Source: a virus
Strand: one strand, 5' to 3'
UHGV virus genome: UHGV-0090882
DNA length: 40,500 nt
Shown: positions 3,505-26,501 of the stretch, one piece after another
Numbering within the stretch: position 1 is the stretch's first letter
How the letters are laid out: each line of letters begins with the position of its first letter
The notes under the pieces: generated by a model
Seen by the model: only the letters and a program-made list of their open reading frames with translations
Databases searched by the model: none
Told to the model about the DNA's origin: nothing
Position numbers and translations under genes: made by a program

Positions 3505-6500
3505 AACGTTCTTCCAGAGACTGAATCCGCTCTTTTATCTTATCCATTTCTCTGCGCTGCCATGCTGCCTCGATATAGAATAAGAGATCAGGTCTGACCC
3601 CCCATCTAGATCCTGCTGGCGTTATTTCAACGCGCTCAATGATGTCTTCCATTACCATCACTGGATTATCATCCTCATCAACAATGATGCTCCCGTCATT
3701 ATCAGTCAGCGGCATTTCCCTTTGGCCAGTAATGACGTCATCATATACTGCGGGATAATCGTCATAGCAAAGAAAGGCATAGCGGCATGTTGTGCTTTCT
3801 TCTTCCATGAGTCCGTGAGAAATAAGAACATCACGAAGTTGCTGCGCGATTACACCATGATGTATCCTCGCCCCTTCTTCCCCCTTTATAGCGACAGCGT
3901 TCAGCCATTTATAAGCGATATACCTGACGTCACCCCAGGCATCCAGCAATGCTTCGTCAGGAGAGACCGGCTCTGTCTTTAATGTTCCGTCACTGGTAAC
4001 CACAGGATTGGAGCCAAGATAAACTGTCGAGAACCTGTTTCCCGGACCACCAAGAGCATTTACATTATCAAGATAAGGTTTAACATCTCCGTTCTCAAAA
4101 AGATGTTCGAGTGCGTTATATACCGCGCGACGTGGAGTACTGCTTCCGGAACCATGCAACGTTATCATTGCACCATCTGCTGAAGACGTTGTTTCACCGC
4201 CGCTAACGATTAATCTCTGAGCGGTAACATCATCAGACGGTACTTTCTTCGCAATAATGGCGTAATTACCCTCAAGTTTGACTTCCGCGCGAACTTGTCC
4301 TGATGTACCTGCATGGACAGTCAGTGACTGGACGGCAACATCATCTGTGAAATCAACGGGTACAGGAACCGTCCTCACGCCTGACGTCGACATAAAAGTA
4401 GGAAGCGTTCTGTTAGGAGTGGCTCCGTAGACAAAATCCCTTGAAACAAATTCTTCCTGTTTAATTTTCACCCTGAAACAATACAAATCAGCCGGGTGAC
4501 CATCGTGAACATAAGGATATTTTCTGTTGTTATCCCCTATGCTCCATGGGTTTAGAAAGTCTTCCCCACCGAAAATGTAGTACAGCCAGTTGTCTTTGAT
4601 ACAAACTGAACCAACACCAACCGCAGAGTTAACTATTCCGCCCTGATAAATCTGATCAGTAACATTAACCCACTCTACATTATCCAGACTCCACTCATTG
4701 ACGTTAACTCTGGTCATAAATGTTCTTGGATAATTTCCTGCATAACGGTTATCAGGTTCTCCTCCTTCCCACTCACCAAATGCGCGCTCACTGCCAAAAA
4801 TAATCAGCTCATCGCCAACTTTGGCAAAAGGAAGGTTTGAGTGATGAACATTATTTGGGAAGCGAAGAGAATTCCATGATGTACCTAAATCAGAGCTTCT
4901 GTGCAATGAACTACCGGGTTGAGTACTTAATGTCCCCCTGGTCGTCAGATACAGAATGCCATCATAATATTTTACACATGGCTCAGATGCATTCGCCTCA
5001 TATTCTGCAGGTATGCGTCTGCGAACAAAGCTACCAGGAGAACCGAAAGCATCAGAGAAATAGAGTATCCCAAGCTCGCGTGGACCAATATCACCATTAT
5101 GGTAGCCAACAGCAAAACTGTTATCGCTAATCGTCGCAAAACTGTGAATCTCAGTAACAGGAGTGCTTCCGTCAACAAAAGAAGGAATAGTTCCAAGACT
5201 GGTTTTTCTCCATGGTGACGAGTGAAATGATGTACCAAAACTCCAGTATCTACCCTCGTTATTCTGATCCACATCCTGGGTATTTTGCGTCGTAACTGTA
5301 AAAGTATTTTTATCAATAACAGTAGTCACCGTCATATTCCCGGTAACACCTGTAACACCAGAGTTTGAGAAGTTGACAAAATCACCAGCAAATAATCCGT
5401 GATCAGTAATGCGAATATAAGCGACTTGCTGATTTGCTGCTTTCGTTATACCACCATAAACGCGAAGGCTGCGACTCATTGGGCGATCCCACAACTCTGC
5501 AACCTGCAGTTTATTTCCGCTCACGGTCCGCGTCTCAATTACAGCAAAAAGGCGATTTCTGACAACCCCCATACTCATGCAGTGATAGTTAACTGTGGGA
5601 TAGTTTTCATGTAAATCTGTAAGCCATTCCGGCGTTGTCCAGGTCTTCCCGTCATCTCCTGAGCGAACCCATGCAACATGGAGGTTATTTACACCATGGC
5701 GGTCTCCAGCCATAAAAGGCGCATAGATGACATTGTCATATACAAACGTTTTATCCTGCGTCCAGGCGTTGTACCACGGTGTATCTGTAATTTTAAATAA
5801 CTCTCCCTGGATAAAATCTTCAGAAGCATAAAAAAGAGGCTGGCCCGGTATTCTCTCAAATAAAAAACGAGCATTTTTAAATCGACTGACATCCGGAAGA
5901 GTTGATACTTTAAAAGTAAGCCCTAATCCGTCAATTTTATAACCTGGAGATGAGGCTTCAAGGCACGCGCTTATTGCAGTGGAATCGTCATTTATACCAT
6001 CACCAACAGCTCCAAAATCTTTGGGGCTAATAGCATCACGCATTTTATCTTGGAACGTTCGGTACACAGCCCCAGAACCATACTGAATAAACCAACCAAA
6101 ACCACCAACAACCCCGGCGATTGCAGCATCGACATAATTACGCATTGAGCGATTATTTACAGCATCCTGCTCAAGTGATGGATCTGCAAGGTTAGAAATT
6201 CTGTTTTGCTTTGCATCGTAATATTTTGCAAGCAGAGAGGGCTTCATCAATGCACGTCTGAACCACCCAAAACATTGCTGGATCAGCATCGTCAGGTAGT
6301 CAAAGGCATCTTCATGCACTTCGGGGAAAAATTTTCCCTGATTGCGAAGGTCTGTCTCCTGCACTACATCAAGCACACGATCTATCGTAATTCGCCATCC
6401 AGTAGCAAGCGGAGACGGAAGAACCACAGAACCGCCACTATAAGTGCCCGCCCCAGTTACCGTATAACCGGTATCCAGAACCAATTCTGTTACGTTTCCG

Positions 6501-6725: not shown

Positions 6726-6742
6726 ATTACCTTTCAGGTAAT
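6726..6742. promoter_or_regulatory. Operator-like 17-bp palindrome ATTACCTTTCAGGTAAT (site 1)
   Basis: Perfect inverted repeat TTACC-N5-GGTAA upstream of the antirepressor promoter. Confidence 0.5.
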
Positions 6743-7122: not shown

Positions 7123-7212
7123 TTTACATCGCACTCCTCTTGTGCCATAGTAATCGGGCACTGGCAAAATCCAGTGCCGGGATTGGCGTCCCGAGTTACT
7201 AAGTGGCGCATA

Positions 7213-7234
7213 CCACGCCAGACGTGGTTTTTTT
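7213..7234 (+). terminator. Putative weak rho-independent terminator
   Basis: Stem CCACG / CGTGG followed by T7. Confidence 0.35.
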
Positions 7235-7390
7235 ATGCGTTAAGCACAGCTATATCCGAATTATGGTGGGCTGGGCAGGGGTCCGAAAGGACGCCGGTAC
7301 CACTTAGGCCGGTACGCCAACCTTGTCCAGTTCACCACCAGTAATTGGCGTTGCGGTGGTGATTAAAATCACTAAGTGGAGATAACCACC

Positions 7391-25490: not shown

Positions 25491-25519
25491 TTGACATTTA
25501 ACGCACAAATTATTACCTT
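25491..25519 (+). promoter_or_regulatory. Putative plus-strand promoter (TTGACA -35) driving the non-coding region and tRNA
   Basis: TTGACA at 25491-25496 followed by an AT-rich -10 region (AATTATTACC) that overlaps operator site 4; same layout as the early-left promoter at 34973. Confidence 0.4.
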
Positions 25520-25528
25520 TCAGGTAAC
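25512..25528. promoter_or_regulatory. Operator-like palindrome ATTACCTTTCAGGTAAC (site 4)
   Basis: Core identical to site 1. Confidence 0.5.
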
Positions 25529-25548
25529 CAAAGAGTTCATTCCGGTTA

Positions 25549-25849
25549 CTAACCTGACTGGCTTGTCGTTAAATTGAACAGGTGGAGTGAGCTTTTATTT
25601 TGAGCAGTACGGCGTATGGCACATGCGCCGATAGCGGTCTGGATACGTTTAAGGGGCACCCTACCTTGCTCGGGCAAACGAACCAGGTAGCCGGAATGTG
25701 CAAGTCGAGCGGTTTTATTCCGCGCACGGGGATTCACCATCCCGGCGATTCGGTGTGACGCCTCGGAAGAGACGAGGGTGCAACGATGAGAGCATTTATG
25801 GAGCCGCGACAAAGTGTGGCGCCTTAACAGGCTAAGTGCTCTCAGCGTT
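25549..25849 (+). ncRNA. Candidate non-coding RNA / structured leader upstream of the tRNA
   Basis: About 300 nt with no plus-strand ORF of 60 aa or more, between a promoter-like element and the tRNA; several local inverted repeats. Confidence 0.3.
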
Positions 25850-25926
25850 GTGGCATTAGCTCAGTTGGACAGAGCAACCGCCTTCTAAGCGGTTGGTCGC
25901 AGGTTCGAATCCTGCATGCCACGCCA
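25850..25926 (+). tRNA. tRNA-Arg (anticodon UCU), phage-encoded
   Basis: Full cloverleaf readable by hand: acceptor GTGGCAT/ATGCCAC, D-stem GCTC/GAGC, anticodon stem ACCGC/GCGGT with loop CTTCTAA, T-arm GCAGG-TTCGAAT-CCTGC, 3' CCA encoded. Confidence 0.9.
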
Positions 25927-25969
25927 GAATCACGCCTAAGGACCGTGATGCCAGAAGTTCCAGGGGCTT

Positions 25970-26011
25970 GGCGGTGATGGTTTCCCTTGAAGGACTATCA
26001 CCGCCCTTTTT
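25970..26011 (+). terminator. Hairpin plus T-run downstream of the tRNA
   Basis: Stem GGCGGTGAT / ATCACCGCC (large loop) followed by CTTTTT. Confidence 0.45.
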
Positions 26012-26089
26012 ACAGCAGGACGCCATTGCGATGACTTCATGCTGTAAACCAGTACAGCCACGGAAGGCATAACTCATTGCTTCCAGTTC

Positions 26090-26113
26090 GCCCGGTTCGC
26101 CGGGCATTTTTTT
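26090..26113 (+). terminator. Rho-independent terminator
   Basis: Stem GCCCGG-ttcg-CCGGGC followed by A and T7; lies 17 nt before the RBS of the 26130 gene. Confidence 0.55.
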
Positions 26114-26129
26114 AAGGTGAGATTAGACT

Positions 26130-26501
26130 ATGAGTGACAAAGACATTGAATCTGAAATTCAGGCTAAAGGTTTAGCCGCGCCGCGCGTTACGCCAGACCA
26201 TATCGAGAGCATTATTGCTCAGGAGGCATATTTCACAGCAGAAGATGGTGTCTTTGGCGTAGCCATAAAAGCGAAACATACTGGCGGAGAGGTAAACTAC
26301 CAGCCGCACGAATCACTTTCTCTGCTGACGTTCTGCGTTCTGGTGCTGCGCAACGGCTTCACCGTCACCGGAGAGAGCGCCTGTGCAAGCCCGGAAAACT
26401 TTGATGCGGAAATTGGTCGGAAGATTGCCCGGCAGAATGCTGTAAACAAAATCTGGATGCTTGAAGGTTACTTGCTGAAGCAGAAGTTAAGCGAGCAATA
26501 A
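26130..26501 (+). CDS. Gp49-like phage protein (N4 gp49 / Sf6 gene 66 family), function unknown
   Basis: 123 aa; C-terminal block LRNGFTVTGESACASPENFDAEIGRKIARQNAVNKIW recalled as that family. RBS AGGTGA. Confidence 0.5.
   Translation: MSDKDIESEIQAKGLAAPRVTPDHIESIIAQEAYFTAEDGVFGVAIKAKHTGGEVNYQPHESLSLLTFCVLVLRNGFTVTGESACASPENFDAEIGRKIARQNAVNKIWMLEGYLLKQKLSEQ

Follow-up and report, generated by a model that had tools for sequence, protein, structure and literature searches.

A widespread family of structured RNAs at the head of early operons in temperate enterobacterial phages

The viral genome UHGV-0090882 (40,500 nt; this whole stretch is referred to here as the window) harbours a short plus-strand transcription unit that lies antisense within the late region, flanked on one side by a small gene and the portal gene and on the other by the large terminase gene, all encoded on the minus strand. 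The region is 99% identical to that of phiV10 and of the O157 typing phages 9 and 10, which are epsilon15-like members of the genus Uetakevirus. The unit begins with an operator-bearing promoter at 25491, continues through about 320 nt without a credible open reading frame (ORF), and leads into a tRNA-Arg gene, two terminators and a small protein-coding gene. It is the RNA of the gap that is the subject of this report: positions 25600-25850 (+) are a member of a structured RNA family with a covariation-supported fold, and this undescribed family is widespread at the early-operon heads of temperate enterobacterial phages. The analysis shows the family with its fold and strand, how it is distributed, and the genomic contexts in which it lies. 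The features of the locus are as follows.

25491..25519, plus strand: early promoter read from the sequence, with a -35 hexamer TTGACA (25491-25496), a 17-nt spacer and a weak -10 hexamer TACCTT (25514-25519)
25512..25528, no strand assigned: repressor operator ATTACCTTTCAGGTAAC, covering the -10 hexamer and the start site
25533..25594, plus strand: long 5′ hairpin GAGUUCAUUCC / GGAGUGAGCUU, from the centroid fold, preceding the RNA core
25600..25791, plus strand: core of the new RNA family, about 190 nt (covariance model R1, 152.5 bits, E = 3e-42)
25781..25850, plus strand: M3, a long 3′ hairpin CAACGAUGAGAGCA...UGCUCUCAGCGUUG, from stem covariation and single-sequence folding
25850..25926, plus strand: tRNA-Arg with anticodon UCU and encoded CCA (ARAGORN; Rfam RF00005, 73.3 bits against a gathering score of 29)
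25929..25949, plus strand: small hairpin AUCACG-CCUAAGGAC-CGUGAU, read from the sequences
25970..26011, plus strand: intrinsic terminator T1 from the terminator scan, a 14-bp stem (25970-26005) followed by CUUUUU
26012..26089, plus strand: inter-terminator spacer with the hairpins UUUACAGCA...UGCUGUAAA and GGAAG...CUUCC
26090..26113, plus strand: intrinsic terminator T2 from the terminator scan, GCCCGG-UUCG-CCGGGC (26090-26105) followed by AUUUUUUU
26130..26501, plus strand: gene of the N4 Gp49 / Sf6 gp66 family, 123 aa (PF13876, E = 2.4e-35)

The architecture of the core consists of five helices round a junction, one pseudoknot linking a loop to the junction, and long invariant junction strands. 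Its paired elements, all on the plus strand, are given below.

25610-18/25622-30: core helix P1
25635-42/25683-86 plus 25690-93: P2, with a bulge GUA at 25687-89
25697-701/25778-82: P3, a long-range core helix
25704-06/25744-46: core helix P3a
25709-12/25720-23: P3b, a variable hairpin
25729-32/25740-43: core helix P4
25735-38/25752-55: pseudoknot of the P4 loop with the junction
25761-65/25773-77: P5, with the loop GAAGAGA

This structure was obtained with RNAalifold and by inspection from an alignment (A2) of 41 non-redundant homologues (at most 95-96% identity). Standard pairs fill 94.4% of 1556 cells across these homologues, compared with 88.0% in shuffled alignments, none of the 500 shuffles reaching the observed value, and a control with slid partners leaves 29-43% paired. 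Double-sided changes are found at 11 of the 38 pairs and in 94 cells, against 24.1 cells in the shuffles (again 0 of 500 reach the observed count). Compensatory changes fall in helices P1, P2, P4 and P5 and in the pseudoknot: a P1 pair is GC in 22 sequences and AU in 18, an inner P2 pair is CG in 30 and UA in 11, P4 and P5 hold three doubly changed pairs each, and the pseudoknot occurs as CACC/GGUG or AACC/GGUU (CG in 36 sequences, AU in 5). Changes in P3 are one-sided only and wobble-compatible, and this helix is perfect in phage P1 (GCGCA); it is the least certain of the set, since its 3′ strand is able to extend M3 instead. Single-sequence folding of the region gives z = -2.6 and recovers M3, and R1 detects one copy only in the window.

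At three pairs U·G or G·U is nearly fixed, so that only the plus strand is able to form the fold. This bears on the idea that the conservation is that of a DNA-level element, either a recombination or module-boundary sequence or an array of protein-binding sites. Such an element would fit the location at exchangeable junctions of phage modules and the spread among unrelated phages, but compensation of the Watson-Crick and G·U kind on a single strand, pseudoknot included, is unexpected for a DNA site, and the element is always co-directional with the early promoter (in mEp460, cdtI, P1 and the other contexts checked), which makes a role as DNA very improbable. Even less can be said for a protein-coding or decayed gene, the latter being an option raised by an earlier note on this DNA that was made from the letters alone. 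The plus-strand ORFs of the gap (28, 52 and 45 aa) have no match in Pfam or the PHROG families. On the minus strand a frame of 87 aa is open at 25549-25812, its mEp460 equivalent is annotated as a hypothetical protein, mEp460_037, and a single weak PHROG match spans 21 aa (E = 0.0014), the family hit consisting of probably spurious ORFs; Pfam matches none of the gap ORFs, and most records have nothing annotated at the element. Among the homologues, indel runs relative to the window are multiples of 3 in just 15 of 154 cases, hence the frame shifts within conserved blocks from one homologue to the next, and the substitutions track base-pairing, with G·U pairs that need the plus strand. The chance of a coding origin is practically negligible, and the decayed-gene option is refuted.

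The RNA has no counterpart in the resources consulted. Scanning of the window against Rfam 15 at gathering thresholds passes only the tRNA, isrK and C4; a permissive scan of 25527-25849 returns nothing better than E = 2; across 10 related loci, Rfam 15 covers neither the element nor the tRNA-like module described below; and the literature, searched by sequence string and by topic, holds no description of the element. The earlier note had also offered a structured leader or a processed small RNA as readings of the gap, and had suggested an Rfam search and a comparison of structure across related phages. The search, run on the window, gives no family for the gap RNA, the comparison yields the pairing and compensatory changes in 41 homologues, and a covariation-supported RNA does abut the 5′ end of the tRNA.

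The expression of this RNA is expected to be tied to prophage induction. Transcription from the 25491 promoter is predicted to start near 25526-25528, and the arrangement of -35, spacer, -10 and operator is also kept in epsilon15 and other relatives; a strict consensus scan called no promoter-like sites, the TTGACA/TACCTT promoter included. The operator ATTACCTTTCAGGTAAC is one mismatch from the palindrome ATTACC-N5-GGTAAT, which has 16 sites in the window (at most 2 mismatches) against 1.1 expected, and its epsilon15 equivalent carries a repressor-binding-site annotation. As the operator covers the -10 hexamer and the start site, the transcript is expected on derepression and not in the lysogen, that is, as a lytic-phase product made once the prophage is derepressed. 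A TTGACA promoter (25491-25496) overlapped by an operator (25512-25528) and followed by some 300 nt free of plus-strand ORFs leading into tRNA-Arg had been noticed from the sequence before, and both observations hold: the gap measures about 320 nt, and its ORFs do not exceed 52 aa or match any family.

The element is shared well beyond the Uetakeviruses. Positions ~25609-25853 are 82-84% identical to non-coding DNA of the unrelated lambdoid phages cdtI, mEp460, 2H10 and Stx2c and Stx2k phages, and share about 79% identity with a segment of P1, P7, D6 and SJ46, the carriers comprising Uetakeviruses, several lambdoid types including Stx2a and Stx2c phages, P1-like phages and the phiV10-type O157 phages. 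A match is present in 1840 of 5426 complete Escherichia coli genomes, with 554 matches on plasmids, P1-type prophage plasmids among them; the feature beneath the E. coli matches is 'none' or just the neighbouring tRNA, and in none of the records examined is the element annotated as such. A pattern scan of IMG/VR finds at least 120 loci (labelled L), with 113 distinct sequences in 40 k-mer clusters among the matches listed, and R1 applied to 100 IMG/VR loci gives 101 matches of 116-174 bits, one per locus except for two in L022. The copies of L022 (minus strand; 3986-4162 and 4793-4967) stand in tandem about 630 nt apart, this being the sole multi-copy locus of the 100. That an RNA borne by a third of complete E. 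coli genomes, by P1 and by Stx2a and Stx2c phages has no Rfam family marks a gap in a well-studied host. The earlier note had the kind of RNA right and missed both this sharing with P1, lambdoid and Stx phages and the lytic-phase timing.

An exact 19-mer scan with one genome per species places the element in 22 Enterobacterales contigs, from Escherichia, Citrobacter, Klebsiella, Enterobacter, Kosakonia, Kluyvera, Phytobacter, Buttiauxella, Erwinia and other genera. Outside the order it returns three chance matches and one short Bacillota-binned metagenome contig of doubtful origin. That contig, JAIIAN010000430.1 (L151; 1.75 kb, labelled as a Bacillota metagenome-assembled genome), bears an HK022-type PL and a full element and is most likely a mis-binned fragment of an enterobacterial phage. 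A deeper phylogenetic reach was likewise considered and set aside, the copy in a 'Stenotrophomonas' phage being near-identical to enterobacterial copies. Variants of the core exist: phages with HK022 immunity (L038, 7150-7250; L046, L055 and L109) have an extra hairpin AGCCCAGACGAUAUCUGAGUGGCU before P5 and, in the L038 type, the P5 loop UGGAAUC in place of GAAGAGA, with lower R1 scores of 120-123 bits. In epsilon15 (L005 1522-1600, compared with window 25600-26020) just P1 and the start of P2 are retained, scoring 36 bits with R1; a deletion of about 380 nt has removed the remaining core, tRNA-Arg and T1, and has spared T2 and the gene behind it.

The core is embedded in a set of RNA modules. 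Upstream of it lies a tRNA-Ile in P1, a tRNA-like 'D-module' in L133 and a long hairpin in Uetakeviruses. The hairpin of the window (25533-25594) has a 3′ strand similar to that of M3 and shows compensatory differences from epsilon15, read off the sequences; the GenBank record of epsilon15 has an 'RNaseIII' processing site that covers this hairpin and the start of P1 and is assigned to the opposite strand. The hairpin is a candidate processing site. Downstream, the M3 stem covaries over 46 stem types (e.g. GAUGAGAGCA/UGCUCUCAGC versus AGGUAAGAGCA/UGCUCUUUCC versus AGCAAAGCGCA/UGCGCUCUGC), and its tip is strongly variable, from 49 to about 300 nt. The variable tip of L158 (4690-4790), and also those of L010 and L031, contains the T-loop-like hairpins GGUUCAAUUCC and GGUCCGUUCGAUUCGGAC; in RNase P and T-box RNAs, motifs of this sort make contact with the elbow of tRNA. 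M3 ends in GUUGUGG in 89 of 114 distinct loci, and this end continues into the acceptor stem of whichever module comes next, either tRNA-Arg(UCU) or, more commonly, the unannotated D-module.

The D-module measures 66-205 nt, is closed by a 10-bp stem GUUGUGGUGA/UCACCACAAC and contains two hairpins with the complementary loops GGCUGAU/AUCAGCA; L077 has the compensatory variant GGCUAAU/AUUAGCA, and the other variants are wobble-compatible. At least four subtypes exist. The module occurs in L002 (2738-2875), L003, L133, L158 (4797-4932) and many other IMG/VR loci, and neither ARAGORN nor Rfam calls it in related loci. It is absent from the window, where tRNA-Arg stands in its place. The small hairpin AUCACG-CCUAAGGAC-CGUGAU is kept 3′ of the tRNA or tRNA-like module in other carriers. 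The flanking tRNAs, tRNA-like modules and long hairpins are probably processing signals for RNase P and RNase III.

Proximity to tRNAs raises the question of whether the element merely serves the adjoining tRNA or tRNA-like module as a structured 5′ leader, through RNase P guidance, precursor stability or chaperoning, and does nothing on its own account. Directly 3′ of it stands tRNA-Arg in the window and a tRNA-like module in other carriers, and M3 and the acceptor stem share a base, the last base of M3 being the first of tRNA-Arg. In P1, however, the element comes after a tRNA and none follows downstream, and in several types (L029, L061 and L081) the core is not directly followed by M3 or by a tRNA-like module. 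To our knowledge, no known bacterial tRNA leader approaches the elaborateness of this pseudoknotted core of about 190 nt, whose junction strands are invariant across unrelated phages, and a mere leader is an unlikely explanation.

A little less probable still is a riboswitch-like sensor of a metabolite or ion, in which the choice between P3 (UGUGC/GYRCA) and an extended M3 (CRCAAC/GUUGUG) would set termination or processing. A junction and pseudoknot with invariant unpaired nucleotides are aptamer-like, and GYRCA(AC) is able to pair with either UGUGC or GUUGUG, the one-sided changes fitting both equally. Yet no terminator or ribosome-binding site overlaps the 3′ end of the core, the nearest terminator lying about 180 nt off and past the whole tRNA, the 3′ modules are interchangeable or absent, and no riboswitch of Rfam matches. 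A T-box-like pairing of the P5 loop (GAAGAGA, which has AGA) with the UCU anticodon was considered and rejected, being in poor register; carriers that lack tRNA-Arg retain the loop, and the L038 type has it changed.

The chief pointer to a function is the genomic setting of the element, at the start of early operons. In the lambdoids mEp460, cdtI, mEp390, BUCT708 and Stx2a_1447, it closely follows cI in the same orientation, and the order in all five is the cI terminator, a pair of operator-like palindromes with a promoter (OL/PL), the element, and then the early-left operon to xis/int, so that the element holds the position that nutL and N have in lambda. In L038 and L151 the PL/operator region is homologous to that of HK022 and the homology ends at the transcription start; past that point HK022 has putL, and L038 and L151 have the element about 28 nt downstream. 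A TTGACA promoter lies within a few nucleotides of the P1 hairpin in Kosakonia prophages, an operator-bearing promoter precedes the element in Uetakeviruses, and in phage P1 the element has trnI on one side and ban on the other, within the ban operon that C1 controls. These promoter contexts assign the RNA to the repressor-controlled early transcript in all backbones. One or two intrinsic terminators stand before the next gene in the window, L134 and L155, and also in mEp460 and Stx2a_1447 as read from the sequence. The PL operons examined have no annotated N-type antiterminator, nor does PHROGs recognise one among their first ORFs.

By analogy, these features suggest that the element may be a cis-acting antiterminator RNA of a new structural class, comparable to put; we put the probability of this reading, the likeliest of those considered, at about 0.4. 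The put elements of phages HK022 and HK639 (putL and putR) are cis-acting antiterminators that bind the zinc-binding domain of the RNA polymerase β′ subunit without protein factors; these RNAs of about 70 nt, with two stem-loops, bring about antitermination unaided (PMC9378689). On the same scheme, the RNA and tRNA-Arg(UCU) would be transcribed from the repressor-controlled promoter at 25491 upon derepression, and the nascent RNA would fold and bind the very polymerase that made it, as the HK022 put RNAs do. The bound polymerase would become resistant to the terminators downstream, here T1 and T2 before the gene at 26130-26501 and, in the lambdoid carriers, those at the head of the PL operon. 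We infer all of these steps, from transcription at 25491 through processing to polymerase binding and antitermination, from comparison with known systems. An antiterminator would explain why the element is promoter-proximal, why it stands in for putL, why terminators come after it and why N is lacking.

The likeness to put is one of setting. The element also lies just after a repressor-controlled early promoter and before terminators and early genes (P1 excepted), its carriers lack a recognisable N, its fold is compact and its sequence conserved; the base of its helix P1 (ACGGCG...CGUCG, then AGCG) also resembles, by eye, the base of put stem I. The differences are those of build and range: the element is ~190-250 nt long with a multi-helix junction and a pseudoknot, it occurs in non-lambdoids too (P1, Uetakevirus), and it is flanked by tRNA or tRNA-like modules. 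The sequence that defines put (GAACGGC..., stem II CGGCGGG-UCAGGA-GA...CAAUG) and the two-stem fold are absent from it, its own fold having 8 helices and a pseudoknot over about 190 nt. Membership of the put family was rejected after putL and putR of HK022 and putL of HK639 had been read, only the base of one hairpin being alike; put would be a functional analogue of the element and not its homologue.

Several observations weigh against an antiterminator. R1 does not match HK022 putL or putR or HK639 putL even at E = 10, the likeness (ACGGCG...CAUGCGUCG..AGCG) is confined to that one hairpin base, and the essential G35 of put is not conserved in the element. In P1 the promoter (Pban) is 2.4 kb away from the element, which directly precedes ban, and no terminator is called near it. 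epsilon15 keeps T2 and the gene without most of the core, so that read-through of T2 may not need the core, and the Uetakeviruses have just one small gene downstream. The RNA is present once per phage (L022 aside), and no PR-side copy was found in L002, L003 or L038 (PR plus ~1.6-5 kb beyond) or in the other loci searched. Lastly, the varied brackets of tRNAs, tRNA-like modules and hairpins suggest selection for cutting out a discrete RNA, and a cis-acting antiterminator has no obvious need of that.

It is this last point that the main rival takes up, namely a discrete, trans-acting early RNA cut out of its transcript by tRNA-processing enzymes, which we regard as possible though with the odds against it. 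RNase P would cut where the downstream tRNA or module begins, 3′ processing of an upstream tRNA, where there is one, would make a further cut and RNase III would act at the long hairpins, all of which we hold equally tentatively; the compact RNA would then act on a host or phage protein, candidate roles being host take-over and the neutralisation of tRNA-directed or other defence. At least four bracket arrangements argue for excision: tRNA-Ile upstream (P1), a D-module on both sides (L133), the 5′ hairpin with M3 and tRNA-Arg (window), and M3 with a tRNA-like module (lambdoids). So do the GUUGUGG end that runs into the next acceptor stem in most of the unique loci, the terminator that follows the RNA modules, as in a self-contained RNA gene, and the loss of core and tRNA as one unit in epsilon15; the scarcity of long single-stranded stretches points to a fold that binds a protein or ligand rather than to a base-pairing small RNA. 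A trans-acting RNA leaves unexplained, however, both the constancy of position at the start of early operons, the exact site of putL included, and the means by which PL transcription passes the terminator in lambdoids without a recognisable N or put, and no partner protein co-occurs with the element across its carriers. In its fuller form, which we hold with the same reserve, the core would be a trans-acting RNA excised from a string of tRNAs and tRNA mimics, with the likewise undescribed D-module as its partner, and would act on a host machine. Candidate targets are a tRNA-targeting defence nuclease, RNase P, the ribosome and RNA polymerase, and the kissing loops of the D-module may, as a model, stand in for the D/T elbow.

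Other phage RNAs share part of these traits. GOLLD and ROOL are large structured non-coding RNAs without an assigned function that are often carried by prophages beside tRNAs, and both are Rfam families. The element resembles them in being phage-borne and close to tRNAs and in having an elaborate covarying structure with variable inserted domains; in contrast to them, it has no Rfam 15 match, is much smaller, belongs to Enterobacterales rather than mainly to Firmicutes and their relatives, and is linked to the heads of early operons under repressor control. RNase P releases the small regulatory RNAs C4 (P1/P7) and CI (P4) from longer precursors; both are antisense RNAs of 77-87 nt that pair with target mRNAs of the immunity operon. 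The element, too, is part of a longer phage transcript, its ends probably set by tRNA-processing enzymes, and C4 co-occurs with it in P1, mEp460, cdtI and the prophage studied here; it differs in lacking a long single-stranded seed, in being two to three times larger and in belonging to a different operon. The N/nut system of lambda and boxA of rrn operons are, as proposed for the element, promoter-proximal RNA signals that confer resistance to terminators, although carriers of the element have no recognised N gene. In many homologues the 3′ strand of M3 reads UGCUCUUU, like rrn boxA, and a boxA (NusB/E) site was considered there; as this strand is paired and covaries with its partner, the likeness is probably a structural coincidence, and the candidate was dropped.

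What the family would mean depends on the reading. If the element is an antiterminator, RNAs that reprogramme RNA polymerase without proteins would comprise a second class, unrelated to put in structure and far more widespread; it would also account for the passage of early terminators in lambdoid and Stx phages without N or put, a step upstream of prophage induction and toxin release. A processed, trans-acting RNA would be a new player in the early take-over of the host, and if it works as one of two RNAs with the D-module, a system without a described counterpart would be carried by P1, by the Stx phages and by one in three complete E. coli genomes.

Downstream of the tRNA, both hairpin terminators recognised earlier from the sequence are called, at 25970-26011 and 26090-26113, the region having 4 terminator-like sites compared with 1.7 expected. 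A RyhB-like Rfam match at 26059-26113 (18 bits against 55) was rejected, since it is terminator T2 only. The inverted repeat that had been noticed between them (ACAGCA at 26012-26017, TGCTGT at 26040-26045) is present and folds as a hairpin, and the inter-terminator segment has a fold z of -2.8. The suggestion that this segment is a separate RNA element fares less well: 26012-26089 is conserved in sequence among Uetakevirus relatives, and its stems are nearly invariant, so that covariation speaks neither for nor against it. The segment reads better as a spacer or leader between tandem terminators before the gene at 26130-26501. From the end of T2 to the start codon of this gene there are 17 nt, and its ribosome-binding site begins 2 nt past T2, which leaves no space for a promoter of its own; the gene therefore needs read-through of T2 and, if transcription starts at 25491, of T1 too.

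Elsewhere in the window, an isrK RNA (67 bits; 7158-7234, +) and a C4 antisense RNA (66 bits; 7259-7342, +) stand in tandem, and a perfect copy of the operator, ATTACCTTTCAGGTAAT, is located upstream of the pair at 6726-6742. Together, isrK and C4 with this operator are an immI module of the P1 type, which controls an antirepressor, in a Uetakevirus prophage; the pair is also found in the lambdoids mEp460 and cdtI, both carriers of the new RNA.

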